Positions 428-60,334 of a DNA stretch of 64,000 nt are shown in pieces (within the stretch, counting starts at the first letter, position 1; each line of letters opens with the position of its first letter). Origin of the DNA: Myxococcota bacterium (lineage in GTDB: Bacteria > Myxococcota_A > UBA9160 > PR03); assembly GCA_041611735.1 (NCBI GenBank), contig JBFIML010000013.1:1-64000 (forward strand), read 5' to 3'. The notes under the pieces are model-generated. The model made no database searches. It worked only from the letters and a program-made list of their open reading frames with translations, and was not told the origin of the DNA. The position numbers were made by a program, and so were the translations under genes.

Positions 428-3400
428 TCAGCTCGCCAGCTCGGGCCCCACCACCACGCGCGGGGTCACGAAGATCAGCAGCTCCTTGCGGACGTCCCGC
501 AGCGTCTGGTTGCGGAACAGGTAGCCGAACACCGGGATCTGGTGCAGGTAGGGCACCCGGCTCGCGCTCTCCGCCTTGTCCACCACGTAGATGCCGCCGA
601 TCACGAGCGTCTGCCCGTCCTTCACCAGCGTCTCGGTCTTCGCCTGGTTCTTGGCGATGGCCGGCGAGCCGGTGGGCGTCGCCACGCTGTCATCCGGAGC
701 GTTCCGGCTCACCTCGATCTTCATGATGATGCTGCGATCGGCGGTGATGTGCGGGGTCACCTTGAGACTGAGCACCGCGTCGATGAACTCGAGCTGCGCG
801 TCGCCGTTCTCGAAGGTCTGGAACGGAATCGACACACCCTGCTCGATCACTGCCTCGCGGTTGTCCAGGGTCACCACCCGCGGACTCGAGATCACCTTGC
901 CCTCGCCCTTCGCCTCGGCCGCCCGCAGTGAGAGCGAGACGTCGAAGCGGTCGTCGAGGATGAAGGCGCCCAGGTTCAGGATCCCATTGGCCACGGACGA
1001 GATCGGGTTCGAGACCACCACGTTGTTGTCCTGCTCGAACGGGAACTTGTCGTCCTGGACCGTGACCGGGCGGCGCTGCCCGATCACGAAGTCGGAGCCG
1101 AGATCCTCGTCCCGCGGCTGCGACCCGAGACCCCACTCGCTGCCGATCTCGCGCGAGAAGTCGAGGTTCGCCTCCACCACCTTGGCCTCGATCATGACCT
1201 GAGGCGTCTGGGTATCGATGGCCTTCATCAAGGCCGTGGCCTCGTCGATCACCGACGGGATGTCCTTGATGATCACCGTATTGGTGCGCTCGTCCACGTC
1301 CACCGAGCCCCGCGGCGTGAGCAGCCGCTTGACCATGTTGGACACTTCCTTGACGTTCGCGTAGTTGACCGGCTGGAGCTTGACCACGAGGTCCTCGAGC
1401 CGCTCCTTGGAGCGACGCTCCTGCAGCCGTGCCTCCTCCTCCGCCTTGAGCATTTCGGCGGGGGCGATGCGCAGCACGCTGCCCACCCGCACGAAGCCGA
1501 GCCCCTTGGTCAGGAGGATCACGTCGAGCGCCTGATCCCAGGGGACGTCCACCAGGCGGATCGTCACCGTGCCCGTCACTTCGTCGCCGGCGATGACGTT
1601 CAGGTCGGAGACGTCGGCGATCAGCCGCAGCACGTCCTGGATGTCGACGTCCTTGAAGTCCAGCGAGATGCGACGTCCCACGTACTGCTTGCCGTCCAGC
1701 AGCCCGCCCTCCTCGAGGATCTCGGTGGGGTCCGACGGCTCGAGGGCCGCCGGGGCCACCTTGGCGGGCACGGACCTGGCCGCCGACGCCTTCACCTCCG
1801 CCGGGGGCGGCGTCTTGGGCGCCGCCTCCTCCAGCGCGGCGCGCACCGACTTGCTCGCCATCGCCGGGGGCACCTCGGCCACGGCACCCTGGCGCGGGAA
1901 GTCCAGGATCAACATGGCGCCTTCCCGGGTCACGGTCGGCACCAGGCCGGGCGCCCGCTTGACGACCACCCGCACCTCCGGCGTCTTCACGTCGGGCTGG
2001 GCGAAGGCGGTCACCAGCGACACCGGGCCGCCGGGATCCGGCGCAATGCGCACCGCCGCCGCTTCATCGATCTCGGCGCCGCGCAGGCTCACCACCAGGG
2101 TGCCCGGATCCGGCCGCATGAGCTGGTGCTCCACGGGCCGATCCGTCACGACCACGACCCGGTCGCGGCTCTCCTGGGGCTCGTACTGCACGCCGTAGAC
2201 GTGCACCAGGCCGCTCTCCGGCTCCTCGGCGGGGGCCGGCGGGCTGGCCTGGGGCGCGGGCTCCGGCTCGATCTTCGCCTGGGGCTCCGCGGCCGGCGGC
2301 GCCATGGCGGCCGGCACCGGCTCGGCGGCCATCTCGGTCGCCGCGCTCTCCGGCTCCACATCCTCCATGGCCGCCACGGCCTCGGCGGGCTCCTGCATGG
2401 CCAGCACCGCTGCCTCGGGCGCCTTCTCCTCGGCGACGGGGTCCGCCTGCTGGGGCTCCGCGGCCATGAACTCCTGGACGGCCTCCGCCTCGGCCATCTC
2501 GGCCACGACCGGCTCGGGCTCCGCAACGGGCGTCGCCTCGGCCGTTTCGATGGCCTGGGGCTCCGCCCACGTCCCCTGCGACGAGCCACTGGCGGCGGCG
2601 AAGGCCTCGGCCAGGGCCGGGCTCTGGCCCAGCGCGATCACGAATCCGTCTGCCACGGTCGCCGTGCCGCGGCCCGCGAAGGGCTGCTTCGCATCGCCGG
2701 CGTCCACCACCAGGCGCACCTTGTCCGGATGGGCCCCGATGCGGATGCGGCTGACCTGGGCGGTGCCCACGGCCAGGTTCGGCACGTCCATGCCGTTGGC
2801 CAGCCCCGGAAGGTCCACGACCAGGCGCGCCGGCTCGTCCAGGGTGAAGGTCTCCGCCTGGGCGATCGCCCCGTCTGCACGCAGGTGCACCAGGACGCCG
2901 CCATCCACCGGCTCGGTGGAGACGGCCAGCAGCCGGGTGGCCGGGCCCCCGGAGGACGACGTGGGAGCCTCCGAGGCCATCGCCTCGGCCGGAGACGACG
3001 AGGCATCGCCCGTCTCCAGAGAGGCGGACGGAGACCCGGCGGGGCGGACGCGCACCTCGAGGCGGTCGCCGAAGGGCACCACGTCGAAGTCCGCTTCCTG
3101 GGCCAGCGAGATCTCGACCCGCGTGGAGGGCTGATCGTCGGTGGCGAATTCCGCCACGGAGACCTCCTCCACCAGGCCATCGTAGATGGCCAGCGCCTCG
3201 GTCAGCCTTTCGGGACGGACCGCCGTGAGATCCACCACCACCCGCGGCGGTTCCTCGCCGCGGAAGGCGGTGAAGACCGGATCGGTCGGACCCACCAGGG
3301 TGATGATCGTCGTGTCCCCGCTTCGCTCGACGGCGATCTTGGAGACGACGGATACCGGCTCGGGAGCCGGAGGTGTGGACGGCGCGGTCACGCAGGCGTA

Positions 3401-12500: not shown

Positions 12501-13044
12501 GGCGGAACTCGGCCAGGCCGAAGCTCACGCCCTTGGACTCGGCCTCGCAGATCACGTCCAGGAGCACCAGCTTGGCCGCCTGGGCCCGGGTGCGCCGGTA
12601 CTTGTCCCGGAGCTGGTTGGCCCCGCCGGCGGGGTTGCAGCCCTTGGGGATGGACTTGGCGGTCTTGATCTCGTTGTAGTAGGGGTCCGCGGCCGAGCTG
12701 AAGTACCAGTTCAGGTAGCGGCCGGTCCAGAGCGTGGGGTTCTCGGGCCGCCAGATCGTGCGCGCCTTCCCACAGTGGGTCTCCGTCTTCTGACTGGTGA
12801 TCTCGTAGACGGTGTCGTCGTTCCACTTGTTGCAGAGCGCGGTGTAGCTCTGGCTGGGATCGAAGGCCGGGTGCCACTCGATCTCCTTCATGGAGCGCGA
12901 GTTGTCGATGAAGAGCAGCACGTTGGGCGGCACCGAGGCGGTGAACAGGAAGAGGTCGGTGTCCGGATTGGACCCGGCCGGGACCGGCAGCCCGAGGCCG
13001 ACACCCAGAGCGAGTCCCAGGAGCGCCCGATGCGTTTGCTTCAC
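9598..13044 (-). CDS. pilY1: PilY1/PilC-family pilus tip adhesin with vWA-like domain (copy B)
   Basis: MIDAS-like DNSRSM and VTDG; LGDIFHSSP, YAGANDGFLHAF, GETW, Ca-loop DLDFDGFAD, GDLGGNLWK, YWRE terminus. Confidence 0.92.
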   Translation of the reverse strand: MKQTHRALLGLALGVGLGLPVPAGSNPDTDLFLFTASVPPNVLLFIDNSRSMKEIEWHPAFDPSQSYTALCNKWNDDTVYEITSQKTETHCGKARTIWRPENPTLWTGRYLNWYFSSAADPYYNEIKTAKSIPKGCNPAGGANQLRDKYRRTRAQAAKLVLLDVICEAESKGVSFGLAEFRQPADAGNVDPNGGFVTVPVDKPTPRHASNLEAAVGNSSGSGASPLGESLFQSYTYFMSRDPANLPFGQDGVTRFPKYQYKSGANGAQTASPPGSPMEFVCQKNFVVMVTDGSPTRDDFDADPASTAVGFPVFTSLIGDYNPGAGDEPEVPGDVEESAWYLDDIARFMANNDCRPDMTGDQTIDVYTIGFGTDEGADDVLRRAADVGNGLYYHAQDGDQLSTALLAALNDIIEKAQSFANVTVPSTRTADGGDFYASFFIPSGRQAFWEGHLTAWRLDAQGAVRDSGGNCALIDPDPGECNSGPFKAEAVPFWDAASKVPAPDLRKLHTSKLLAGTPTRVAFDAALAPADLGIVPFTSPGTNDPSPNSGLYPLKGSTALNAAGLAKEVVAYGRGCELGTGVPGTDVSVPQACMVRDRLLGDIFHSSPIVVTRPKALIPEPSYFDFKTLHANRKRVIYAGANDGFLHAFDAGTWDALAVPPDYTAGTGAELFAFMPWQARRNIRRLPIDDPLARQLYVDGQLQVADAWFHPTPTTGSLPADKSASDWHTVLVGGLRQGGSQYFALDVTQPTLGSAPVYLWEFPREDDPNNVANPNSFLPYMGETWGQAILTRVRVRVGADDNGGKGYERWVAIVTGGYHASGDPNDSLNYAANARAGRSLFVLDLKTGKVLAQKRFDPAAPIGDAQRDMRYAIPSTPAVFDLDFDGFADVVYVGDLGGNLWKWVIKPVGEDRVNDASGALTQPSWSFRRVFQAPSGTVDGKTYYKSFFFPPAGTKLNGKVWLAFGSGERRDIQFLGKPSSPVENNRFYVMTDLDPLELAAAPLATVTEPDLQDLTASPGGAVLSGRGYYFRAADGEKFVTNVEIFAGFVIAASFTPIDDPQPCTAKGNSNLYVFKLASGAGHFEDGVGNSIRGISIGAGMPTDPQVSVGVGSGATTRIYVGKSGAEIESPDDDIPEPGDIRLLYWRERF

Positions 13045-13092
13045 GGTCAGATCTCCCCATCCCCTCCGGTGATCGATTCGCTCTCGCCGCGC

Positions 13093-13557
13093 TCACTCGA
13101 GGCGGGCGGCGAGCACCTCCAGTCGCGCCGTGGACCCGGCGGGCTCCTGCCCCTGGACCCGCACCCGCCAGTAGTGCAGCTGGAAGGTCGGGCTCGCGTC
13201 CTGGCCCACGTTCATCTCGAAGCCCTCGATGGGGCTTCCGCCCAGATCGTCCAGCGGGTCGGCGGCCGTGGGATCGGGCTGGTAGCTGGGCCGGCCGTAG
13301 GGAAAGCTGCCCGGGTCCCCCACCGACTGGCCGTTGGTGACGGTGGGCGTGCCGGTGCGGGCCAGGTTTCCGAGCGCCTCGGCCACCCCCGCCTCGGCGG
13401 CGTAGAAGGCCATCCGTTCGCGCATCTGGTAGCCGGCCACCTGGCGCTCACGCGTCACGGTCTCCAGGGCTGCGAAGCCGACGGCGCCGATCAGCACCAG
13501 CATCATGACCGTGGCCAGCAGGGCCGAGCCCTCGATTCGTCGGGTCTGGATTCTCAC
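13093..13557 (-). CDS. pilX: PilX-like minor pilin (copy B)
   Basis: G|SALLATVMMLVLI prepilin leader without Glu5; AFYAAEAGV PilX motif. Confidence 0.8.
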   Translation of the reverse strand: MRIQTRRIEGSALLATVMMLVLIGAVGFAALETVTRERQVAGYQMRERMAFYAAEAGVAEALGNLARTGTPTVTNGQSVGDPGSFPYGRPSYQPDPTAADPLDDLGGSPIEGFEMNVGQDASPTFQLHYWRVRVQGQEPAGSTARLEVLAARLE

Positions 13558-14567
13558 AGGGTGGTCCCCCGGTTGCCCAGATTGCGCAGCTGGACCGTGG
13601 CCGTGTGCACGCGGCGGCGGAAGCCGTCGGCGCCCACCACGGGATCGCGGTTCTCCGTGTTCTGGAACAGACCCTGGCTATACTCCTGCCGCGGATCCGG
13701 GTCCCGGGTGCGCAGCGCCAGGTTGAAACGCACCTCGCGTAGCTCGCGCCCGTCGGCCCCGGCCGCCACGTAGTCGGGCCCCACGTTGTCCCCGCGGTAC
13801 TCGCCGGGATCGATGGCCCCGTTCCCGTTGGCGTCGTAGAACCAGGCGAGCTGGAGGTCGTCCACGTCCTGGGCGAAGACCAGGCCGTCGCGCAGCAGCT
13901 GCCGCTGGGCGTCGACCCGGTAGTCGTGAGCCGGCACGGCCACGAGCTGGGGGGCGCCGCCGGCCGGTGCCAGGGGGCCGCTCACGATGTTCACCTGCAG
14001 GCTGGTGGCGCTCGGGATCCCCACCACCGTCCCGCAGGCCGCCCCGCGCCCGGGGTCGCCCAGGTCGACGACGATCACGCCGCCGTTCACCCGGAAGTCG
14101 CTGTCGGCGACCCCGTCGCCATCCGTGTCGTAGGCGGGACGCCAGGTCGGGTTGGGCTCGATGACCAGCGAATCGACGTTCAGGGTCTGGACGCCGGTCA
14201 CCACGTTGGCGGTCGCCACCGGGAGGCGGGCGCCGAAGTCGAGACCCTTGTCGTCGCCGGGATCGACGGCATCCGCGTCGCTCACGAACAGGCGGTCGGG
14301 GCCGCCGTCCTGGTCGATGCCGCAGACCGCCGCCGCCTCCGACACCATGAGCCCCGCATGGCGGAGGTCGCGCTCCAGGAGATCGGCGATGGCGCGGCTG
14401 TTCTGCCGGACCTCCGACAGCTGGTCGACGACCACGTAGGTGCGCTGCTGGGTCGTGAAGGTCTGGGTGACGAGCACCATCACGATGCCGAGCACCGCCA
14501 CCGCGACGAGCAGCTCCACCAGCGTGAAGCCGCCCTGCCCGCTGCGCCCGGCCCTCTCTGCCCCCAT
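13554..14567 (-). CDS. pilW: PilW-like minor pilin (copy B)
   Basis: G|FTLVELLVAV N-methylation motif; LERDLRHAG; C-terminal VQLRN. Confidence 0.82.
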   Translation of the reverse strand: MGAERAGRSGQGGFTLVELLVAVAVLGIVMVLVTQTFTTQQRTYVVVDQLSEVRQNSRAIADLLERDLRHAGLMVSEAAAVCGIDQDGGPDRLFVSDADAVDPGDDKGLDFGARLPVATANVVTGVQTLNVDSLVIEPNPTWRPAYDTDGDGVADSDFRVNGGVIVVDLGDPGRGAACGTVVGIPSATSLQVNIVSGPLAPAGGAPQLVAVPAHDYRVDAQRQLLRDGLVFAQDVDDLQLAWFYDANGNGAIDPGEYRGDNVGPDYVAAGADGRELREVRFNLALRTRDPDPRQEYSQGLFQNTENRDPVVGADGFRRRVHTATVQLRNLGNRGTTL

Positions 14568-22420: not shown

Positions 22421-22436
22421 AGCAAGCCGTGTGCCA
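22421..22436 (-). promoter_or_regulatory. Sigma54 (-24/-12) promoter for cassette A
   Basis: Minus strand TGGCACACGGCTTGCT, near-consensus. Confidence 0.8.
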
Positions 22437-49444: not shown

Positions 49445-49637
49445 GTCTGCCCGGTGCGTCAGGGGAGCCGATCGCTCAACCCGGTGAGACGTGATCGGGA
49501 TCCGTTCCTGGCCGTCGACCGAGCGCCCGCCTGGCGGGACGAAGGGACGCGGCGACACGGAGCCCACCTGGTTCGACCAGGGATTGAGTTCGCTTCCCAA
49601 CGGCCATGGCGGACCGTCCTCCGGGCGCATGGGAGAC
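49445..49637 (+). ncRNA. ssrS: Probable 6S RNA
   Basis: About 190 nt after a strong sigma70 promoter; terminal stem GTCTGCCCGGTGCGTC/GGGCGCATGGGAGAC, inner stem GGGATCCGT/ACGGAGCCC, and a CCCACCTGG-TTCG-ACCAGG hairpin in the central bubble, as in 6S RNAs. Confidence 0.6.
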
Positions 49638-49656
49638 GGGAGAGGGGCCCGAGCCG

Positions 49657-49911
49657 ATGACCGACTCCTCGCGCGCGCAGGGGGGGCTGATCTGCCTGGC
49701 GGCGGTGGCCGCCGGCGCGCTCTTCCTGCTCGGCCTGGCCCGGGGCAGCTACTGGGCGCTGGCCGTCCCGGTGGCCCTCGCCGTCTTCTTCGCACTCGGA
49801 CTGACCTTCTGGGTGGGCTGGACCATCGCCACCATCCGGGTGGAGCCCGAGGGCCTCGCCGGGCCCGATGCGGACGCCGAGAGCGAGCCCGCCGCGGACG
49901 CGAACCGGTAG
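49657..49911 (+). CDS. Small two-TM membrane protein
   Basis: Two hydrophobic helices and an acidic tail; first gene of the glycosyltransferase operon. Confidence 0.65.
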   Translation: MTDSSRAQGGLICLAAVAAGALFLLGLARGSYWALAVPVALAVFFALGLTFWVGWTIATIRVEPEGLAGPDADAESEPAADANR

Positions 49912-49919
49912 CGAGAGCG

Positions 49920-51179
49920 GTGCGGATCGCGCTCCTCACCTACCGGGGGAACATGTACTGCGGCGGCCAGGGGATCTACGCCGCCCGACTCGCCCGCGAG
50001 TGGCAGCGCGCGGGCCACGACGTGCACGTGATCGCGGGACCGCCGCTGCCCGAGCTGGCTCCGGGCATTCCGCTGCACGTGATCCCGAACCAGAACGTCT
50101 TCGGCGTGCGCCATCCGGCGTGGGCGCGGCGTCCGAATCCCTTGTCGCTGCTGTGGCCCGTGAACCTGTGGGAGCTCGGCGTCTCGCGCTTCGGCGTCTT
50201 CCCGGAGATGCAGACCTTCGGCCTGCGGCTGCTGCTGCGCTGGAAGCGCCTCCAGGAGCGGCATCGTTTCGACGTGGTGTTCGACAACCAGAGCCTCTCC
50301 TGGGCCCTGCTGGGATTGCGGGCCACCGGCGTCCCGGTGGTGTCCGTGATCCACCACCCGCTCCACATCGATCGCGAGGCCGACTTCGCCATCGATCCGC
50401 ACCTCGAGGCCAAGCTCAAGCGGACGCTCTACTTCCCGCTCTTCATGCAGCAGCGCGTGGCCCCCCGCCTCGACCGCATCGTGACCGTGAGCGAGGCTTC
50501 GCGCGCGGAGATCCAACGCTACTTCGGCATCCCGGAGAAGGAGATTCGCGTGGTGTACAACGGCACCGACGCGGAGCTCTTCCGCCCGGTGCCCGGCCGA
50601 CGCATCGAGACGGACCTGCTCTTCGTGGGCCGCACCGAGGACCGCAAGAAGGGCATCGGGGTGCTGCTCGAAGCCCTGGCCCGACTGCCCGCCCCGGTGA
50701 CGCTCAAGATCGTCGACGGGCGCATTCCCGAGGACGGGCTCGTGCCGCGGCTGGTGCGCCGCTTCGGTCTGGAGGGACGCGTGGTCCTGCTGCGCCGCAT
50801 GCTGACCCTGCCGGAGCTGGTCGCCGAGTACTCGACCGCGCGTGTGGCGGTGGTGCCGTCCTTCTTCGAGGGCTTCGGCTTCCCGGCCAGCGAGGCCATG
50901 GCCTGCGGGCTGCCGGTGGTGGCCCACGCCGCCGGTGCGCTGCCGGAGGTCGTGGGCAGCGACGGGGAGGCGGGCCGCCTGGTGGCGCCCCGCGACCCGG
51001 CCGCCCTGGCGCAGGCGATCCGCGACGTGCTGGCCGACCCGGCGCGCCTCGCCCGCATGGGCCGGGCGGCCCGCTCTCGGGTGCTGCGCCTGTTCCGCTG
51101 GCGCGACGCCGCCGCACAGCTGGTGGACGTGTTCGAGGAGACGCTGCGTGCTGCTCACCGTCGATCTCCGGCGGCTTGA
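49920..51179 (+). CDS. GT4 glycosyltransferase (ManT-like)
   Basis: RIALLTYRGNMYCGGQGIY, DNQSL, IHHP, EGFGFPASEAMACG. Confidence 0.88.
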   Translation: MRIALLTYRGNMYCGGQGIYAARLAREWQRAGHDVHVIAGPPLPELAPGIPLHVIPNQNVFGVRHPAWARRPNPLSLLWPVNLWELGVSRFGVFPEMQTFGLRLLLRWKRLQERHRFDVVFDNQSLSWALLGLRATGVPVVSVIHHPLHIDREADFAIDPHLEAKLKRTLYFPLFMQQRVAPRLDRIVTVSEASRAEIQRYFGIPEKEIRVVYNGTDAELFRPVPGRRIETDLLFVGRTEDRKKGIGVLLEALARLPAPVTLKIVDGRIPEDGLVPRLVRRFGLEGRVVLLRRMLTLPELVAEYSTARVAVVPSFFEGFGFPASEAMACGLPVVAHAAGALPEVVGSDGEAGRLVAPRDPAALAQAIRDVLADPARLARMGRAARSRVLRLFRWRDAAAQLVDVFEETLRAAHRRSPAA

Positions 51180-51864
51180 GGTCCGCCCGGGCGACCGCCT
51201 GCTCGACGTGGGCTGCGGCGAAGGCCGGCACTGCTTCGGCGCCCTCGAACGGGGTGCGCGGGTGGTGGGGCTCGACCTGGACGCCGAGGCGCTCGGGCGC
51301 TCGGCACGGGCCCTGCGCGCCCGCGCCCGCGAGCTGGACGGCTTCGGCATCCTGCTGCGCGGCGACGCCTTCCGCCTGCCCTTCCCCGATGCCTGCTTCG
51401 ACCGGGTCATCTGCTCCGAGGTGATGGAGCACGTCCACGACTACCGGGCGGCGGCGCGGGAGCTGGCGCGGGTGACGCGGCCGGGCGGCAGCGTGGCGGT
51501 GACCGTTCCCACCGCCACCAGCGAGCAGCTCTACCTGCGCCTGGGCGACGACTACTTCGAATCTTCCGGCGGCCACATCCGCATCTTCCGTCCCCGGGAG
51601 CTGGCCGCAGCCCTGGCCGCCGCGGGCCTGCGCCCGCGGGACGTGGGCTTCGCTCACGCCCTCCACACGCCCTACTGGGTGCTGCGCTCCGCGGTGGGGC
51701 TGGCGCGGGCCGAGGAACACCCGCTGGTGCGGGCCTACCGGACGTTCCTGATCCGGGCCACCACCTCGCGACTGCTGCAACGGGTCGAGCGCGTGCTCGA
51801 CCGCGTGTTCCCGAAGAGCCTCGTCCTCTACGCCCGCCGCGAGCCGGCGTCGAGTGCCGCGTGA
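51148..51864 (+). CDS. Class I SAM methyltransferase (mycobacterial MeT1-like)
   Basis: LTVD..RL, DVGCGEGRH, SEVMEHV, GGHIRIF, AHALHTPYW, HPLVRAY, KSLVLY. Confidence 0.85.
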   Translation: MLLTVDLRRLEVRPGDRLLDVGCGEGRHCFGALERGARVVGLDLDAEALGRSARALRARARELDGFGILLRGDAFRLPFPDACFDRVICSEVMEHVHDYRAAARELARVTRPGGSVAVTVPTATSEQLYLRLGDDYFESSGGHIRIFRPRELAAALAAAGLRPRDVGFAHALHTPYWVLRSAVGLARAEEHPLVRAYRTFLIRATTSRLLQRVERVLDRVFPKSLVLYARREPASSAA

Positions 51865-53195
51865 GCGGGCCTCCGCTGCGCATCGCCTTCGTCTCCTATC
51901 GGGGCAACATGCGCTGCGGCGGCCAGGGGATCTACCTGTGGTTCCTGGCCCGCGAGCTGGCCCGCCTGGGACACCGGGTGGACGTGTGGGTGGGGCCGCC
52001 CCATCCGGATCCCATGCCCTTCGCGGACTCGGTGACTGCGCTCCCCAACGACCAGTTCTGGGGCAAGTGGTTCGCCCGGGATCGCTCGGCGCTGCTGCCC
52101 CGCTCCCGGCCGCTGGGCGTCTTCCAGCCGCTGCGCTTCTACGAGCTCGCCGCCAGCCGGATCGGGTTCCTGCCGGAGCCCTTCGCCTTCAGCGTGCGCG
52201 CCTTCCGCTCCCTGGCCCGCTCCCTGCGGCACGGCCGACGCTGGGACCTGGTGCACGACGTGCAGTGTCTCGGCTGGGGGTTGCTCGGCGTGCAGGCCCT
52301 CGGCCTGCCCGTGGTGGCCACCGTGCACCATCCGCTCTCGGTGGACCGCCGGGCGTCCTTTGCCCGCGATCGCACCCTGCGCGAGGCCCTGGGGACCGCG
52401 GAGTTCTACCCGGTGGGGATGCAGGCCCGGGTGGCGCGCCGGCTCGACCGCGTGATCACCTCCTCCGAGGCCAGCGCCCGCACCATCGCCCGGGACTTCC
52501 GGGTCGCGCCGGCGCGCCTGCGCATGCTGGGCAACGGCCTCGACACGGAGCTGTTCCGTCCCGACCCGCGCCTCCCACGGGCCGAGGCGGAGCTGCTCTG
52601 CGTGGGTCGCGCCTCGGACCCGAACAAGGGGGTCCCGCTGGTGGTGGAGGCCCTGGCGCGCCTGCCGCGACCCGTCCACCTCACGCTGGTGGACGAGGAC
52701 CACCCGCTCAACCCGGCCCGCCTGCGGGCCGGCGCGCTCGGCGTGCTGGAACGCGTGCACTTCACCGGGCGCGTCGCGACGGAGCGGCTGCTGGAGCTCT
52801 ACCGCCGCGCCACGCTGGTGGTGGTTCCCTCGCGCTACGAAGGCTTCGGGCTGCCGGCCGCCGAGGCCATGGCCTGCGGCACACCCGTGGTAGCGAGCGC
52901 TGCGGGGGCGCTCCCGGAGCTGCTGCAGGCCACGGGGGGCGGGCTGCTGGCGCAGCCGGGCGACCCGGAGCAGCTGGCCAAGGCGATCGCGACCCTGCTG
53001 GAGCAGCCAGAGACGCGGCGACGTCTGGGCGCGCGGGGACGCGAGCGCGTGGAGGCCCTCTACGCGTGGCCGCGCGTGGCCGCTCGCACCGTGGCGGTTT
53101 ACGAGGAGGTGCTGGCGGAACGACGGGGCCGACCGGCGAGCACCACCACGTCGGCCCAGTCGGGCAACCAGCGCGCCAGTCGCCCCAGCGTCTGA
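51861..53195 (+). CDS. GT4 glycosyltransferase (ManT-like paralog)
   Basis: RIAFVSYRGNMRCGGQGIY, VHHP, EGFGLPAAEAMACG. Confidence 0.88.
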   Translation: MSGPPLRIAFVSYRGNMRCGGQGIYLWFLARELARLGHRVDVWVGPPHPDPMPFADSVTALPNDQFWGKWFARDRSALLPRSRPLGVFQPLRFYELAASRIGFLPEPFAFSVRAFRSLARSLRHGRRWDLVHDVQCLGWGLLGVQALGLPVVATVHHPLSVDRRASFARDRTLREALGTAEFYPVGMQARVARRLDRVITSSEASARTIARDFRVAPARLRMLGNGLDTELFRPDPRLPRAEAELLCVGRASDPNKGVPLVVEALARLPRPVHLTLVDEDHPLNPARLRAGALGVLERVHFTGRVATERLLELYRRATLVVVPSRYEGFGLPAAEAMACGTPVVASAAGALPELLQATGGGLLAQPGDPEQLAKAIATLLEQPETRRRLGARGRERVEALYAWPRVAARTVAVYEEVLAERRGRPASTTTSAQSGNQRASRPSV

Positions 53196-53893
53196 AGCGC
53201 AGCGTGCGCCACCGGCCCCGGCAGGCGCTCCATCAGCCGCGACCACCCCGGCAGTCCCCAGCCCAGGGAGACGCCCTCCATCGCGGCCAGCTCCAAGTGG
53301 CGTCCCGCCTGCTCCCGCATCAGGCCGAGCTCGTAGCGAGTGAAGTGGTCGGCGGGCACGTCGTAGTGCCGGCGTCCGCGCCGCACCGGCCGCCCCAGCC
53401 GGCGCTCGCCGGCTGCATCCAGCGCGCGGGATGCCCGGCAGGCCAGCGAGTCGAAGTTGGCGATGGCGAGCACCACGTGGCCATCCGAGCGGGTGACGCG
53501 GGCCATCTCGGCGATGGCTCGCTCCGGGCGGTCGAAGTGGTCGAGGGCTCCCTTGCACAGGGTCGCATCGAAGCAGCGATCCGCGAAGGGGAGCGCGTCG
53601 GACCAGCCCCGCACCCAGACCGGCCCCGCCGCGACCGGCTCGGCGCTGCGCAGCCGCGACCACGCGGTCATGCGCTGCGAGGGCTCGACCCCCACCACCC
53701 AGGCGCCGCGGCGGGCCAGGGCCAGGGCGTCCTGGCCGAAGCCGCTGGCCACGTCGAGGATGCGGCGTCCCGCTGCTGCGCGCGCCAGGCCCAGCGTCAC
53801 CTCGGTCATGCGGTCGAACAGGTACTGGCTGTCGCGCGTGGTCCCGGTCGGGATCACGTCGCTCATGTCGCGGTCGAGATCGACGACGCGCAC
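53099..53893 (-). CDS. Class I SAM-dependent methyltransferase
   Basis: ILDVASGFG, ALPFADRCFD, ALDHF, EMARV. Confidence 0.8.
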   Translation of the reverse strand: MRVVDLDRDMSDVIPTGTTRDSQYLFDRMTEVTLGLARAAAGRRILDVASGFGQDALALARRGAWVVGVEPSQRMTAWSRLRSAEPVAAGPVWVRGWSDALPFADRCFDATLCKGALDHFDRPERAIAEMARVTRSDGHVVLAIANFDSLACRASRALDAAGERRLGRPVRRGRRHYDVPADHFTRYELGLMREQAGRHLELAAMEGVSLGWGLPGWSRLMERLPGPVAHAALQTLGRLARWLPDWADVVVLAGRPRRSASTSS

Positions 53894-53937: not shown

Positions 53938-54252
53938 CTAGAGCCGGCCCTCCAGGTAGCCCTCGATCAGCTCGATGAGGCCGGTGTCCACTCCGTCGAA
54001 GCACAGACCCACCAGGCCGCGCTGCGGATCGCTCCACGCGACCACCGCCTCCAGGGCCAGCGGCAGGGAGATGCCGGGCAGGGCGAACTCGCTGGTGACC
54101 GGCGTCCGCGTCGGGGGCAGCGGCGAAGTCATGCTCACGCTCATGCCCCCGGCGGAGAGGTCGCGGCCCGAGGCCAGCTTCCTGCGCCCTCGAGTGGTGA
54201 TCTCCACCCAGCCTTCGAACGAGGCTCGGGATCGCCCTCGGCGCTCCTGCAT
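53938..54252 (-). CDS. PilZ-domain protein (c-di-GMP receptor-type)
   Basis: ERRGRSR (RxxxR) and DLSAGG (DxSxxG) motifs. Confidence 0.85.
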   Translation of the reverse strand: MQERRGRSRASFEGWVEITTRGRRKLASGRDLSAGGMSVSMTSPLPPTRTPVTSEFALPGISLPLALEAVVAWSDPQRGLVGLCFDGVDTGLIELIEGYLEGRL

Positions 54253-54410
54253 CCCCTCCTCCCCGTCGCGCTCGAAGCCCGCAGGAGGATCCCTTGCAAG
54301 TTTCGTGCTCAGCTCGCTCCGGGCCGGGGCCGACCCGCTCCGGCGCGTAGGAACACTACGTCCGCGGGGGGGATGGGGAGGGGGGCAGGGAGCATTATCC
54401 TCCTCGATTC

Positions 54411-55673
54411 ATGAGCAAAGCTCTTCCGTCGGAGGGAAAGTTCTTTCCGCGAGGCGCCCCCCGAGGCGCGAGTACGCTGGACCGCCTGGCGGCCTTCCGG
54501 GTCACCTACGCGGCCCTCTTCGCCTTCCTGCTGCTGTACGTCTTCACCGTCAAGGGAGTCGAGCAGCTGCTGCAGGACCACTACCGCCAGGCCGTGGCCG
54601 AGGCGGTCCGCGTGGAGGACGTGGACGCTCGGGTGCTCGAACGCATGCGGACGCGTCTCGACCGGGCGGTCCGGGGCTCCGCGTGGGTACGGATCGGCGG
54701 CGTGCGGGTCACCGCCATCGTGATCGGCGCCGACGGGATCACCCCGCTCTACCTGGGGCGGGCGCTGCCGCCGCCCCCCCCACCCCCCGATCCGCTCGCG
54801 GCGGCGGCGGAGGCGGAGCGGCTGCTGCCGGCGACCGCCGACGTCAGCGTCTCGGTGCCCCACAACTCGCTACTGGCCAACGCGATTCTGGTCTCCTACG
54901 CGGCCCTGCTCGTAGTCTCGCTGTTCGCCTACAACCGACGCCTCGCGCGCCGTGAAGAGGAGCAGCTAGCGGCCGCCGTGGCAGAGCGCGAAGCCGCCGC
55001 TGCGCGAGCGGCCCGCATCGAACGCGAGCTCGCCGACGTGCAGCACCGGCTCGAGACCCAGCAGGCCACCACGGACGGCTCCGAGGAGATCCGGACCCTG
55101 CGCGCGGAGCGGGCCCGGCTCCAGGAGGAGCTCGACGCGGTCGGGCGCCGCGAGCAGGAGCTGGCAGCCCGGGCGGGACGGGCGCAGACGCTGGACGAGG
55201 AGCGCCAGGCCCTTGAGGAGCTGCTGGACGAGGCCACCCGCGACCTGACCGGCAAGGACGAAGCAATCCGCTCCCTGGAGCAGCGCCTGCGCCGCGCCAC
55301 CAAGGCCCAGCCGACCGCGCGCGCGGGCAAGGAGGAGGAGCAGCTCGAGCGGCGGCTGCGCACGCTCTACAAGAATCTGGAGATCGACGACCGGGTCGTC
55401 CGCGACCTGGTAGCGCTGCGGGACGAGACCATGAAGCTCAAGGCCGAGGAGAGCCTGAAACGTCTCTCCGACGACACCGAGACCGCCGCGGTACGCCGCA
55501 AGGTGGGAGGCTTGCCGCCGCATCTGTCGATCTTCGAGCTCGGCTTCGCCGGCAAGGGACGCATCTACTACACGCGCGGCCGCCAGCGCCGCTTCCGCGT
55601 GCTCGCCGTCGGCGCCAAGAACACCCAGAAGACCGATCTCGAGTACCTGAGTCGCCTGCCGCGCGACGGCTGA
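54411..55673 (+). CDS. Membrane-anchored coiled-coil protein with C-terminal RelE/HigB-like domain
   Basis: Two TM segments flanking an extracytoplasmic region, long heptad coiled coil, C-terminus IFELGF..GRIYY..VLAVGAKNTQKTDL. Confidence 0.75.
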   Translation: MSKALPSEGKFFPRGAPRGASTLDRLAAFRVTYAALFAFLLLYVFTVKGVEQLLQDHYRQAVAEAVRVEDVDARVLERMRTRLDRAVRGSAWVRIGGVRVTAIVIGADGITPLYLGRALPPPPPPPDPLAAAAEAERLLPATADVSVSVPHNSLLANAILVSYAALLVVSLFAYNRRLARREEEQLAAAVAEREAAAARAARIERELADVQHRLETQQATTDGSEEIRTLRAERARLQEELDAVGRREQELAARAGRAQTLDEERQALEELLDEATRDLTGKDEAIRSLEQRLRRATKAQPTARAGKEEEQLERRLRTLYKNLEIDDRVVRDLVALRDETMKLKAEESLKRLSDDTETAAVRRKVGGLPPHLSIFELGFAGKGRIYYTRGRQRRFRVLAVGAKNTQKTDLEYLSRLPRDG

Positions 55674-55680
55674 GGGCGGC

Positions 55681-56052
55681 TCAGCGCGTTTCGAGCGCCT
55701 CCCGCAGCGTGGCGCGCAGGGCGTGGGCGTCCCAGGGCTTGGCGACCAGGGCGCGGATGCCCAGGGCCCGCATGCGCTCCGGGGCCACCTCCTCCGGCCA
55801 GCCGCTCACCAGGATGCGGACCGCCTGGGGACAGCGGGCGGCCGCCTGGGCCAGGAGATCGAGGCCGCTCTGTCCCGGCATCTTGTGGTCGGAGAGGATG
55901 GCGTCCACCGTTCCCCCCTCGAGCAAGCGCAGGGCGTCGGTCCCGCTGGTCGCGGTGAGGATGCGGTAGCCCTCGCGGCGCAGCGTCCGCTCGAGGGCGT
56001 CCAGAATGCGCTCCTCGTCGTCTACGAGCAGGATCGTCGCAACCGGGGTCAA
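55681..56052 (-). CDS. Single-domain response regulator (CheY-like)
   Basis: ILLVDDE, LSDHKMPG, KPW; TTG start overlapping the kinase stop. Confidence 0.85.
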   Translation of the reverse strand: MTPVATILLVDDEERILDALERTLRREGYRILTATSGTDALRLLEGGTVDAILSDHKMPGQSGLDLLAQAAARCPQAVRILVSGWPEEVAPERMRALGIRALVAKPWDAHALRATLREALETR

Positions 56053-57347
56053 GGCCCCGGGTCCGGGGGCGGCCCGCCCTCGCAGGGAAGCCGGACCTCG
56101 AAGGTGCAGCCGCCGCCCGGCCGGCCTTCGGCACGCAGGGTGCCTCCATGCCGGCGCACCACGTCGTAGGCCGCCGAGAGGCCGAGGCCGGGCCCCTCGC
56201 CCGCCGGGCGGGTGGTGAAGAAGGGCTCGAAGACCCGTTCCCCCGGTCCGGGCGGCAGCCCGATCCCGTCGTCGCTCACTGCGACGCGCACGCCTTCGGG
56301 CACGGGCTCCGTGCGCAGGACGATCTCTCCCTGGCCCGCCTCCGTGCGCAGGCGTTCCTGGATGGCCTGGTGGGCATTCACCAGCAGGTTCATGAACACC
56401 TGTTGGAGCTGGGTGGGGCGACAGCGCACCAGGGGCAGCTCCCCGTACTCCTTGCGCAGCACCACCGTGTGCTTGAGGGTCGGCCACACGATGCGGGCCG
56501 TGGCGTCCAGGACCCGATTCAGGTCGGCGGGCACCGGCTCACCCTCGTGCGGGTCGGCGAAGACGCGCAGGTCCTGGACGATGTGGCGGATCCGCTCGGC
56601 GCCCTCCAGGGATTCGCGTACCGCCTTGGCGGCGTCGCCCAGCAGGAAGTCCGCATCGACCTGGCGGGCCAGGGCGTCCAGGCGGCCCCGGGCATCCCGC
56701 AGCCTCGCGTCGACGCTGGCGCCGGCCGCCTGGCGGAGCTCCGCCACCGCCTCCCACAGCCGACGCAGGTCCGCCAGGTACTCCTCGAGCTGGAAGAGGT
56801 TGGCGTGGATGAAGCCCATCGGGTTGTTGATCTCGTGGGCAACGCCCGCCGCGAGCCGGCCGATGGACGCCATCTTCTCCGCGTGGAGCACCTGGCGCTG
56901 CAGACGTCGGATCCCGGAGAGGTCCTGGAAGGTGGCGACGGCCCCGAGCGGCGAGCCGTCCGCTTCGAGCAGCGGCCCGGAGCTCACTCCGATGGGGACG
57001 CGCTGGCCGTCGCGGCGGGTGAGCGTCAGCTCGGCGCCGCACACGCGGGCTCCCTCGCGCAGGCTGCGGGCGAAGGGGAGCTCGTCGCGTGGCGTGTCCG
57101 GAAACCAGTCCCACACCACGCGGCCCGGCAGCCCCTCGACGGCCTCGCCGAGGATGGCCGCGGCCGGCGGGTTGGCCCCGCTCACCTGACCGCCCGTGTC
57201 CACCACGAGGAGCGCGGTGTTCAGGTTGCGCAGGATGGCCTCGGCGTGCCTTCCCAGGGTCCCTGCGTTGCGGGCCGGGGAGGCCCCCGCGACCCCGGCG
57301 GCGGGGCGTGCAGCGACGCGGCGCGCGGGGCTGGACGGCTCGCTCAT
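56049..57347 (-). CDS. Cytoplasmic PAS sensor histidine kinase
   Basis: [42 protein letters not shown]. Confidence 0.9.
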   Translation of the reverse strand: MSEPSSPARRVAARPAAGVAGASPARNAGTLGRHAEAILRNLNTALLVVDTGGQVSGANPPAAAILGEAVEGLPGRVVWDWFPDTPRDELPFARSLREGARVCGAELTLTRRDGQRVPIGVSSGPLLEADGSPLGAVATFQDLSGIRRLQRQVLHAEKMASIGRLAAGVAHEINNPMGFIHANLFQLEEYLADLRRLWEAVAELRQAAGASVDARLRDARGRLDALARQVDADFLLGDAAKAVRESLEGAERIRHIVQDLRVFADPHEGEPVPADLNRVLDATARIVWPTLKHTVVLRKEYGELPLVRCRPTQLQQVFMNLLVNAHQAIQERLRTEAGQGEIVLRTEPVPEGVRVAVSDDGIGLPPGPGERVFEPFFTTRPAGEGPGLGLSAAYDVVRRHGGTLRAEGRPGGGCTFEVRLPCEGGPPPDPGP

Positions 57348-57389
57348 GGCGTGCTTCCGGCTCGGACGTGGTGGGGGGAACAGCGCAGG

Positions 57390-58829
57390 CTACCCGATGG
57401 ACCCGTCGCGACCAACCCCTCCCCGCGGCGCGGGGATGCCGTGGCGCCCGAGCTTGCGGTAGAAGGTGCTGCGTCCGATCCCGAGCCGGCGCGCGGCCTG
57501 CGTGGCGTTCTGGCCGCTCTCGCGCAGGGCCCGCTCCAGGACGCTGCGCTCGTAGGCCTCCAGGGAGAGCGGCAGCGCCGCGGCGGCTCCGTCCCGACGC
57601 GGGGAGGCGCGGCGGGCCAGGGGAAGGGCCGCCGCACGCAGCCGCGGGCCGCGCGCCAGGGCCAGGGCCGACTCGAGCACGTTCTCGAGCTCTCGCACGT
57701 TCCCCGGCCAGTCGTGCTCCACGAGCAGGGCGAGGGCGTCGTCGTCGATCCCCTCCACGGGCGAACCCGCGCGCCGGTGGCGAGCCAGAAAATGGTGCAC
57801 GAGCAAGGGGATGTCCTCTCTTCGTTCACGCAGAGTCGGAAGCTCCAGGCGCACCACGTTGAGGCGGTAGAAGAGGTCCATGCGGAAGGCCCCGTCCTCC
57901 ACCATGGCGGCCAGGTCGCGGTGAGTGGCCGAGACCACGCGGAGGTCCACGGGGACGGGCTCGGCCGCCCCGACCGGGCGCACCTCCTTGTGCTGGAGCG
58001 CCCGGAGGAGCTTGGCCTGGACCGCCACCGGGATCTCGCCCACCTCGTCCAGGAACAGCGTGCCGCCCTCCGCCATGCGGAACAGCCCCGGGGCCCCGAC
58101 GGCGCCGGTGAAGGCACCGCGCTGGTTCCCGAACAGCTCGCTCTCGATGATCGACTCGGGCAGCGCGCCGCAATCGACGGGCACGAAGGGCCCTCCGGCG
58201 CGCCGGCTCGTGGCGTGGATGGCCCGCGCCACCAGCTCCTTGCCCGTACCGCTCTCGCCGAGGACGAGCACCTGGCTCTCGTTGTGACGCAGGCTCCCGA
58301 TCATCCGCACCAGGGCGCGCATGCGGGGAGAGGTCCCGACCAGCTCCGGCAGCGTGGCACGCCCGCGGAGTTCCTCCTCGAGCTCCCGGTTGCGACTCAC
58401 CAGCCGCCGGCGTTCCAGGGCCTTGCGCACCGTGGTACGCACGCGGTGCACGTCCTCGAAGGGCTTGGCCAGATAGTCGAAGGCGCCGCGCCGCATGCAG
58501 CCGACTGCGCTCTCGACGCTCGCATGCCCGGTCATCACGATCACCTCGAGCTCGGAGTGCTCGCGCTTCAGGCGATCGAGCCACTCGAGGCCGCTGGCGG
58601 AGCCCAGGAACAGGTCGAGGAGCACCACGTCGGGAGGCGCTTCCGCCAGCGCCTGCTCCAGCTCCCGGGGACCCGCGGCCTGCAGGACCCGGTGGCCATC
58701 GGCCCCCAGGATCCGGGAGAGGGCACGCAGCAGGAGCGGCTCGTCGTCCACCACGAGGACGAGGCCCGGGGCCTCCTCGGCCCGCACGCCCCGGCCGTGC
58801 GCCGACGGCAGCGCGCACTCGGTCGTCAT
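57390..58829 (-). CDS. Sigma54-dependent response regulator (NtrC family)
   Basis: REC, GESGTGKE, GAFTGA, WPGNVREL, Fis HTH; start uncertain. Confidence 0.9.
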   Translation of the reverse strand: MTTECALPSAHGRGVRAEEAPGLVLVVDDEPLLLRALSRILGADGHRVLQAAGPRELEQALAEAPPDVVLLDLFLGSASGLEWLDRLKREHSELEVIVMTGHASVESAVGCMRRGAFDYLAKPFEDVHRVRTTVRKALERRRLVSRNRELEEELRGRATLPELVGTSPRMRALVRMIGSLRHNESQVLVLGESGTGKELVARAIHATSRRAGGPFVPVDCGALPESIIESELFGNQRGAFTGAVGAPGLFRMAEGGTLFLDEVGEIPVAVQAKLLRALQHKEVRPVGAAEPVPVDLRVVSATHRDLAAMVEDGAFRMDLFYRLNVVRLELPTLRERREDIPLLVHHFLARHRRAGSPVEGIDDDALALLVEHDWPGNVRELENVLESALALARGPRLRAAALPLARRASPRRDGAAAALPLSLEAYERSVLERALRESGQNATQAARRLGIGRSTFYRKLGRHGIPAPRGGVGRDGSIG

Positions 58830-58836
58830 GCCCGGC

Positions 58837-58864
58837 CTATCGGTCCCGCTTTCGGGACGCTTGA
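58837..58864 (-). promoter_or_regulatory. Sigma28-like promoter for the EBP-kinase-RR operon
   Basis: Minus strand TCAAG-N15-ACCGATAG. Confidence 0.65.
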
Positions 58865-58873
58865 GGCCCGGGG

Positions 58874-58902
58874 TTGAAGCGCGCTCGCCCGCTGCGTACA
58901 CT
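58874..58902 (+). promoter_or_regulatory. Sigma70 promoter candidate for the EBP at 58940
   Basis: TTGAAG-N17-TACACT. Confidence 0.55.
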
Positions 58903-58939
58903 TGGGTTGCCCCCCCTCCGTAGTCGCGGAGGTATCCCG

Positions 58940-60334
<1,395 letters not shown>

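Follow-up and report, generated by a model that had tools for sequence, protein, structure and literature searches.

The gene at 54411..55673 (forward strand) of a 64,000-nucleotide stretch of Myxococcota contig JBFIML010000013.1 (positions 1 to 64,000, hereafter "the window") encodes a membrane protein whose C-terminal ~100 residues are predicted to adopt a RelE/ParE toxin fold closest to the Gp49/HigB-type toxins. The gene is not part of a type II toxin–antitoxin (TA) module; within one Myxococcota order it is near-core, with a conserved gene order around it and mostly one copy per genome. It represents a new architectural variant in a known superfamily, real and well conserved. We suggest, with a probability of about 0.4, that the protein carries a HigB-like module which has been domesticated and tethered to the membrane, docks in the A site of the ribosome and probably still cuts mRNA with an altered active site, its activity being controlled in cis.

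The initial annotation of this gene had proposed a RelE/HigB-type fold for its C-terminal part, and in two structure searches only members of the RelE/ParE superfamily came out on top. The AlphaFold2 model of the domain, built on a 28-row alignment of natural fragments, has a predicted local distance difference test score (pLDDT) of 87.0 and a predicted TM-score (pTM) of 0.80. Its order of elements is beta1-alpha1-alpha2-beta2-beta3-beta4-alpha3 (by DSSP E23-25, H27-35, H39-54, E74-79, E83-89, E95-101 and H103-114 in model numbering), which agrees with the RelE topology given in the accessible part of PMC11980606. A Foldseek search of the PDB with this model returned no match at E ≤ 0.001. The best match was 2KHE (E 1.5e-3, TM 0.71 on the target, root-mean-square deviation (rmsd) 2.4 Å), and the list consisted nearly entirely of RelE, YoeB, HigB, HigB2, YafQ, ParE2, related TA toxins or Cami1, with TrmO, in a lower row, as the exception.

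VIA-align 2, which is independent of Foldseek and was run against 48,161 PDB representatives, gave 23 top rows that all belong to the RelE/ParE superfamily (Z 10.6-6.8, rmsd 2.3-3.7 Å, 74-95 residues). The first is Streptococcus pneumoniae HigB (6AF3_A; Z 10.6, rmsd 3.0 Å, 95 residues aligned), and the others include Mycobacterium tuberculosis RelE1 (Z 10.2), YafQ (Z 9.9), the ribosome-bound M. tuberculosis HigB1 (7NBU_Y; Z 9.2, 95 residues aligned), Cami1 (Z 9.1, chain residues 264-366), the ParE proteins at about Z 9 and Vibrio cholerae HigB2 (5MJE; Z 8.2). Below these, the rows at Z 5-7 hold the TA toxins SO_1444/1445 and GraT together with Txp40 and TrmO, which are not TA toxins, and from Z 4.9 down there are mostly other folds with a few distant RNase toxins. 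A full-length model made from a different alignment repeats this list, with 21 top rows at Z 10.6-7.8 over residues 318-420. The proposal thus withstood the refuting condition named in the initial annotation, a fold other than RelE/ParE or a match to an unrelated family.

The second line of evidence is provided by the residues that line the putative active site. As a reference we used an alignment of 20 stand-alone Gp49-type open reading frames (ORFs) from genomes of the same phylum, the profile of which matches S. pneumoniae HigB (E 1.7e-16) and M. tuberculosis HigB1 (E 7.3e-11). The register found by hhalign between the domain and this reference is the one required by the fold: it sets FELGF against wELRv, GAKNTQK against FrKKTQK and RRKVGG against aKKIqG. 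Mansour et al. (2022; PMC9098466, accessible part) assign nine residues to the HigB(TAC) pocket: K58, E66, R68, N73, R77, F93, K95, Q98 and K99. Toxicity was lost in K58A, R68A, R77A, K95A and K99A, while the effect was strong for N73A, partial for E66A and mild for Q98A; R68, R77 and K95 are equated there with K54, R61 and R81 of RelE. The HigB1 chain of 7NBU reproduces the HigB(TAC) numbering at index +6, including the K95A change (F-Y-[K95A]-N-Q-Q-K-T-P). The equivalents of the nine residues in our protein would be, in this order, K364, E376, G378, a shortened loop, R384, G401, K403, Q406 and K407. Positions 55494-55631 translate to RRKVGGLPPHLSIFELGFAGKGRIYYTRGRQRRFRVLAVGAKNTQK, in which the C-terminal motifs quoted in the initial annotation are present and the arginine of "ELR" is indeed replaced by a glycine, Gly378.

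Residue frequencies were counted among 376 domain matches in the fetched proteins, of which 343 distinct sequences were left once duplicates and rows gapped at more than 5 positions of residues 355-416 had been removed. A threshold of 60% identity to the query over these same residues divides them into 195 sequences of clade 1 and 148 of clade 2, a split that is partly circular with the residues counted. Five pocket positions are nearly invariant in clades 1 and 2, respectively: K364 (equivalent to K58; 195/195 and 147/148), E376 (E66; 195/195 and 146/148), R384 (R77; 195/195 and 148/148), K403 (K95; 194/195 and 148/148) and Q406 (Q98; 194/195 and 146/148). Position 407 (K99) is K in 155/195 sequences of clade 1 and variable in clade 2, where the next residue is K or R in 134/148. 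Conservation within the protein is highest in its last 60 residues (column identity 0.82-0.93 vs. 0.49-0.81 elsewhere), and residues 356-416 carry a median net charge of +8 in each clade. Judging from the alignment, two clades with only about 36% identity in the domain have kept the same residue at five pocket positions. Since five of the nine HigB(TAC) pocket residues are nearly invariant at such a distance, a working RNA-binding or catalytic pocket is plausible. The residue pattern reads as HigB-like rather than ParE-like, two types that fold scores alone cannot separate.

Several observations weigh against this reading and have to be set beside it. The whole protein scores 13.9 bits and the domain 16.2 bits with PF05973 (Gp49), under the cut-off of 23.9; for TIGR02683 the values are 14.6 bits (whole protein) and 19.6 bits (last 120 residues), the cut-off being 62.85. 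A profile hidden Markov model of the domain found no RelE among the PDB sequences, where its five matches (E 0.66-7.6) were coiled-coil noise, and the hhalign match to the Gp49 reference is weak (probability 11.7%, E 0.0026, 85 columns). ParE-type toxins do not cut RNA, and structurally they score nearly equal to HigB (Z 8.3-9.5). The pocket itself is incomplete: position 378 (R68) is G in 192/195 sequences of clade 1 and R in 1/195, and in clade 2 it is most often I (44), V (39), E (18), L (16) or D (7), together 124/148, while position 401 (F93) is G in 194/195 and 147/148 sequences. The pairing of K58 with K364 (RRKVGG vs. aKKIqG) requires a 4-residue insertion here, the beta2-beta3 loop is three residues shorter, leaving N73 without a clear counterpart, and the protein stops 17 residues past K403, so that the tRNA contacts K113 and R117 of HigB(TAC) have no counterpart. 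From the residue counts, the ELR arginine and the aromatic F93 equivalents were apparently given up long ago.

The sequence evidence for RelE/HigB membership, when taken alone, is weak. Pfam matches of family members remain sub-threshold, in 5/42 for Gp49 and in 2/42 for ParE_toxin. The ESM Atlas search with the C-terminal part gave a best score of 0.77, which is a lead only, and its named matches include RelE/ParE and "plasmid stabilization" clusters. Two fragmentary members of the family (P0127 and P0322) bear the JGI name [quoted passage not shown], so at least one automatic pipeline caught the resemblance to RelE/ParE. For most members the name is "hypothetical" or a misnomer driven by the coiled coil (SbcC, SMC, seryl-tRNA synthetase).

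The order of parts described in the initial annotation (transmembrane (TM) segment, extracytoplasmic region, TM segment, long coiled coil and a domain of ~100 residues) is recovered by hydropathy, which gives two segments, and by the long helices and compact C-terminal domain of the AlphaFold2 model. This full-length model, built from 25 sequences, has a mean pLDDT of 77.9 and a pTM of 0.42, and comprises helix 19-66, an alpha/beta outer domain and the compact domain 320-415. Because the N-terminus has 5 K/R in 28 residues and a strongly basic stretch (NRRLARREEE...) follows TM2, the sequence implies an N-in topology with an outer loop of ~100 residues and a cytoplasmic C-terminal part of 245 residues. 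In the model, the outer domain consists of H75-88, H91-94, E99-105, E112-115, H128-138 and E142-148, and its conserved residues are W92, G96, G109, Y114, LPA139-141 and P150. The stalk is modelled as helices 154-217, 225-298 and 303-319, with pLDDT mostly 82-90 and heptad a/d occupancy up to 6/8. A homodimer prediction for two copies of residues 150-420 scored 0.01, that is, it returned no answer. In front of TM1, and like the RelE-like domain on the cytoplasmic side, there is a juxtamembrane motif LDRLxxFRxxY (54480-54509, residues 24-33), whose D24, R25, F29, R30 and Y33 are invariant in 25 full-length homologs.

The N-terminal module retrieved members of its own family only. The full-length-model search gave no match for the outer domain, its list being filled by RelE and long-helix matches so that residues 1-220 were barely tested, and the ESM Atlas search with residues 20-180 gave no usable match. 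No fusion of this N-terminal module (20-180) to another output domain was found among 69 matches, all from its own family (231-735 residues, within the limits of the word index), and no Pfam domain, CARF included, lies N-terminal to the RelE-like domain. "Receptor-like" is used here as a description of the architecture only.

The distribution of the gene differs from that of a mobile toxin. Of 301 phylum genomes sampled, the window's genome and 39/47 other genomes of its order encode the protein, mostly as a single copy, as against 0/253 genomes outside this order. Within the order it occurs in families f1 (5/5), f3 (9/9), f4 (16/19), f5 (6/9) and f6, f7 and f41 (1/1 each), and in 0/2 genomes of f2; the carriers are labelled as uncultured Myxococcota or "Deltaproteobacteria" metagenome-assembled genomes. 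Stand-alone Gp49 toxins are scattered over 32/121 genomes of the phylum. The gaps that flank the gene contain no ORF of at least 25 residues. This lack of a flanking ORF, together with the near-core and mostly single-copy distribution as opposed to the scattered Gp49 genes, is why we state that the gene does not belong to a TA module.

The phyletic distribution of the fusion, a check proposed in the initial annotation, extends beyond the order to a second, distant clade with the same architecture. A search with the last 120 residues among 1.84 billion cluster representatives gave 200 matches at E ≤ 0.001, nearly all of 375-430 residues and with the domain at the C-terminus; no stand-alone toxin was found among the 150 matches listed. 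Clade 2 comprises proteins of ~382 residues with domains 35-45% identical. Desulfobacteraceae and Desulfosalsimonas are among the names of its sources, and metagenomes contain it in abundance (418 stretches). It retains the full plan of TM segment, outer domain, TM segment, stalk and domain. Across 198 full-length members, two hydrophobic segments are seen in 164, three in 27, one in 5, four in 1 and none in 1, and the outer loop has a median length of 105 residues in the 164 members with exactly two. Between the end of TM2 and the RRK motif lie 190 residues in clade 1 (median; range 154-201) and 171 in clade 2 (median; range 159-177).

From these data we propose the following mechanism. The inner-membrane protein would expose a domesticated HigB/Gp49-type module as its cytoplasmic tip, and this basic tip (net charge ~+8) would dock into the A site of ribosomes near the membrane, where it would most likely still cleave, or at least clamp, the A-site mRNA. 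The chemistry would be carried out by a reduced catalytic set (E376, R384, K403 and Q406, aided by K364 and K382) without the ELR arginine; by equivalence with RelE and HigB, E376 would act as a base, K403 as an acid and R384 as a transition-state stabiliser. The strong constraint on the last 60 residues would fit a highly conserved partner such as the ribosome. As there is no antitoxin, control must come in cis, and the candidates for it are the membrane tether limiting the ribosomes that can be reached, the stalk of fixed length and, possibly, the state of the outer domain. The example of Cami1 indicates that a RelE domain joined by its N-terminus to a sensor can act on the ribosome without an antitoxin. 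The suggestions of inactivity, membrane sensing, RNase activity and ribosome tethering made in the initial annotation are likewise to be taken as proposals.

A more far-reaching version, which we regard as doubtful, is that of a transmembrane receptor speaking directly to the ribosome: the outer domain would read the envelope, and the stalk would place or unmask the module in the A site of membrane-proximal, e.g. translocon-engaged, ribosomes, the mRNAs of which would be cut or arrested.

The closest competitor to retained cleavage, and in our opinion nearly as probable, is a non-catalytic ribosome binder, which has lost the RNase activity and occupies the A site as a membrane tether, for a hibernation-like silencing or as a reporter of translation status. 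It would account for the family-wide loss of the ELR arginine and F93 equivalents and for the shortened N73 loop. R68A and N73A strongly lower the toxicity of HigB(TAC), and HigB2 and HigB3 of M. tuberculosis, which are short of several pocket residues, are non-toxic (PMC9098466, accessible part). Moreover, the constant retention of a gene that has no antitoxin is more readily understood if its product is harmless, and membrane-anchored ribosome inactivators do exist. According to the accessible part of 10.1101/2024.08.16.608256, YqjD, ElaB and YgaM are membrane-bound proteins that bind ribosomes and stop translation; they are a functional analogy to the tethering reading only, being C-tail-anchored proteins without a RelE fold that bind the 50S subunit at the tunnel exit.

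However, E376 is kept in 341/343 sequences, and an acidic residue in an RNA pocket fits chemistry better than binding; K403 and R384, which correspond to R81 and R61 of RelE, are also invariant. The active sites of the RelE family are plastic, so the loss of one arginine need not end cleavage. We lean slightly towards a retained but altered cleavage over a non-catalytic blocker.

We consider it unlikely that the fold has been re-used away from the ribosome, where it would bind another protein (a receiver regulator, a TPR partner or a gyrase-like target) or a nucleic acid as the output of membrane signalling. A shared fold does not show function, the ParE/PrpT-type structures (Z 8.3-9.7) lie only ~1-2 units from HigB, and the sequence kinship to HigB is weak. 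The gene neighbourhood may also be put forward: a receiver gene abuts the clade-1 gene in 72/80 loci and is the next gene downstream in 10/58 clade-2 loci (in 9 of them on the same strand), while a TPR protein of ~760 residues lies just upstream on the same strand in 26/44 clade-2 loci. Nevertheless, the positions that stay invariant correspond to mRNA-pocket residues of HigB(TAC), with the KN.QKT string common to both, the synteny may reflect general collinearity inside the order, and no TPR gene flanks the clade-1 gene. A receiver partnership conserved across the clades was rejected, for the clade-1 neighbour ranks 13th/30 and 21st/24 among the matches in its own genome, and the receivers of the two clades are not orthologous; the recurrence of a receiver in clade 2 therefore counts for little.

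The clade-2 loci present two further features of their own. The TPR gene (~760-830 residues, e.g. L167:3495-5990, plus strand) looks co-transcribed with the membrane-protein gene. Among the immediate downstream neighbours, ribosomal protein S6 (a cluster of 4 loci) and a "23S rRNA-intervening sequence protein" (3 loci) recur (loci L159, L166, L182 and L135, L136, L157); this may be a coincidence, but both are translation-related.

That the protein is still the toxin of a TA or anti-phage system, its antitoxin being located elsewhere, in an unrecognised small neighbour or in its own N-terminal part, is very improbable: multidomain and membrane-associated RelE/ParE toxins have been proposed as defence proteins (Gerdes 2025, PMC11980606, accessible part), the window's genome has a HigA-type antitoxin and 41/60 small immediate neighbours in clade-2 loci are without a Pfam family, but 0/60 of these neighbours match an antitoxin family, and the near-core, syntenic inheritance is unlike that of stand-alone Gp49 toxins. 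The HigA-type gene (TIGR02684, 60.3 bits; C5:12925-13170) adjoins its own toxin remnant, an HI1419-type gene upstream that is split over two frames, one with the N-terminal helical part and the other with the GGYRVYF...GGDK..Q..DI core. The pair, on the minus strand at 2405-3066 of locus L191 (G000:C5, ~12900-13570) and with the antitoxin intact, looks like a decaying classical TA cassette of the HI1419/HI1420 type. The HI1420/HigA-type antitoxin family occurs in 10/61 genomes of the order and is missing from many carriers of the membrane protein; with its own decaying cassette and this patchy distribution, an antitoxin of this family acting in trans was rejected. The window's genome also has two ParE_toxin matches and no PF05973 match, our own protein not being found by this model either. 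PADLOC recognised no defence model for the domain or for a clade-2 member, its sole match being a 17-bit coiled-coil LmuB over residues 185-324, and no CRISPR or defence context is seen at the gene; with no PADLOC match for the domain, membership in a defence system was rejected.

Comparison with known systems shows in what the protein is different. It shares with Gp49-type HigB (7NBU, 6AF3, 5MJE) the fold, the basic surface and the C-terminal helix after beta4, and its motifs stand in the same register: FE-L-x here vs. wE-L-R, GR-IYY here vs. FR-VLF, and K-N-x-Q-K-T in both. Unlike these free proteins of ~100-120 residues, the module is the tip of a 420-residue membrane protein without an antitoxin; it has lost the R68 and F93 equivalents, has a shorter beta2-beta3 loop and alpha3, falls under every curated family cut-off and is inherited vertically as a near-core gene, whereas the distribution of Gp49 toxins is patchy. 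From ParE gyrase-poisoning toxins, with which the domain shares the superfamily fold and, in 2/42 members, a sub-threshold ParE_toxin match, it is separated by the conserved K/E/R/K/Q pattern, which corresponds to the mRNA pocket of HigB. According to PMC11980606 (accessible part), ParE toxins do not have the catalytic residues of the RNases.

Cami1 (CARF-RelE, 8PHB/8PHJ) is similar in that a RelE fold lies C-terminal to a sensor-type domain and is antitoxin-free and regulated in cis; the structural match (Z 9.1-9.5) covers its RelE part only (chain residues 263-367). Cami1 is soluble, and its sensor is the cyclic-oligoadenylate-binding CARF domain of CRISPR type III loci, while our protein has a two-TM module, an outer domain and a long stalk, with no CARF domain and no CRISPR or defence context. 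As far as PDB titles tell (8phb, 8phj), Cami1 was solved on the 70S ribosome. ToxM-ToxR, as presented in the accessible part of Gerdes (2025, mBio, PMC11980606), likewise has a BECR/RelE-fold domain at the cytoplasmic side of a membrane-spanning protein. In ToxM the toxin domain is N-terminal, a single TM region lies in the centre and the C-terminal domain is extracellular; its gene is co-transcribed with the upstream antitoxin ToxR of the ribbon-helix-helix or helix-turn-helix (RHH/HTH) type; our protein has the opposite domain order, two TM segments, a long stalk and no antitoxin upstream. That study set aside many multidomain proteins for which no antitoxin could be identified. No description of the present architecture was found in the open-access literature searched, including the accessible part of PMC2701414.

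The gene itself is, as its relatives indicate, genuine and not a chance ORF in 73% GC DNA. It is an ORF of the window with an ATG start and 420 codons before the stop; the GC content of the local DNA is 71-73%, and long spurious ORFs in other frames overlap it. We consider it real despite the high GC because 1105 proteins match it at E ≤ 0.001 and 123 species genomes encode relatives of the 420-residue protein; the best 119 of the others are 55-75% identical over 94-100% of the length. No RNA evidence for the gene was found among 16 listed runs, those that bear it being marine and sediment metagenome DNA. A sigma54 promoter before the gene is not supported either: the window contains 14 matches vs. 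17.8 expected by chance, and the one nearest to the gene (54295-54310) is on the opposite strand and lacks GG. Elsewhere in the window, the minus-strand site 22421-22436 is a perfect match to the sigma54 consensus TGGCAC-N5-TTGCW and the sole one with zero mismatches. The positions of all features are collected in Table 1.

Table 1. Coordinates in the window of the gene, its parts, the pocket motifs and the two adjacent genes
Feature	Position	Strand	Basis
Whole gene	54411..55673	+	ORF list; full-length homologs 55-75% identical; in 123 species genomes
Cytoplasmic N-terminal segment, residues 1-28	54411..54494	+	Alignment; 5 K/R in 28 residues; residues 1-17 pLDDT <50
Hydrophobic segment TM1, ~residues 29-50	54495..54560	+	Kyte-Doolittle 19-residue windows 1.5-1.95; inside model helix 19-66
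Outer (presumed periplasmic) alpha/beta domain, ~residues 51-152	54561..54866	+	AlphaFold2 model elements; conserved residues; loop length
Hydrophobic segment TM2, ~residues 153-174	54867..54932	+	Kyte-Doolittle windows to 2.29; start of helix 154-217
Cytoplasmic helical stalk, residues 175-319, three helices, partly heptad-patterned	54933..55367	+	AlphaFold2 model
Predicted RelE/ParE-fold domain, Gp49/HigB type, residues 320-420	55368..55670	+	AlphaFold2 pLDDT 87, pTM 0.80; Foldseek; VIA-align
RRK364...FE376-L-G378-F...K382-G-R384-IYY (K58, E66, R68 lost, R77)	55494..55571	+	Translation, hhalign register, HigB1 numbering
G401-A-K403-N-T-Q406-K407 (F93 lost, K95, Q98, K99)	55611..55631	+	HigB1 chain, family frequencies
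PilZ-domain gene, divergent, context only	53938..54252	-	Pfam PilZ E=1.8e-9; upstream in 23/80 related loci (tblastn)
Stand-alone receiver-domain gene, convergent, context only	55681..56049	-	Pfam Response_reg E=1.4e-19; downstream in 72/80 related loci

The neighbours are as the initial annotation had described them, a PilZ gene and two-component genes with no adjacent antitoxin. The PilZ gene is listed as genomic context only. The stop of the receiver gene lies 7 bp from that of the membrane-protein gene, and the receiver is the last gene of a string of NtrC, PAS kinase and receiver. Its longest-ORF call (55681-56487, minus strand) runs into the 3' end of the kinase gene; its true start is therefore probably further in, and the real gene probably encodes ~122 residues. 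The region 55681-60334 contains, on the minus strand, an NtrC-type sigma54 activator, a PAS histidine kinase and the stand-alone receiver, and beyond these another NtrC-type activator in divergent orientation. The two activators share positions 58874-58901 in their longest-ORF calls, so that their true starts, too, are probably further in. Upstream, positions 49491-53893 hold two GT4 glycosyltransferases and two S-adenosylmethionine (SAM) methyltransferases in an order kept in 65-76/80 related loci, and this block may be an envelope-polysaccharide cluster.

Synteny was evaluated in 80 loci, with at least 1.5 kb available upstream in 66 and downstream in 71. The methyltransferase is found upstream in 76, the glycosyltransferases in 65-66 and PilZ in 23 loci, and downstream there are the receiver (72), the kinase (72) and the NtrC-type activators (69-74).

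The known RelE/HigB nucleases are small, mobile toxins guarded by an antitoxin, or they are effectors of defence systems. Here, the toxin fold is fused to a conserved membrane protein and is under a stronger constraint than the rest of it. Every curated model misses this family, which points to the limits of annotation. If the module still acts on the ribosome, it would be an example of toxin domestication in which tethering and cis-control have replaced the antitoxin, and it would point to a spatially restricted control of translation at the membrane, a process that is difficult to study and for which few factors are known. Should the more doubtful direct path from receptor to ribosome be true, the protein would constitute a one-protein pathway from signal to translation and the first RelE-type fold fixed as a vertically inherited, antitoxin-free housekeeping gene.

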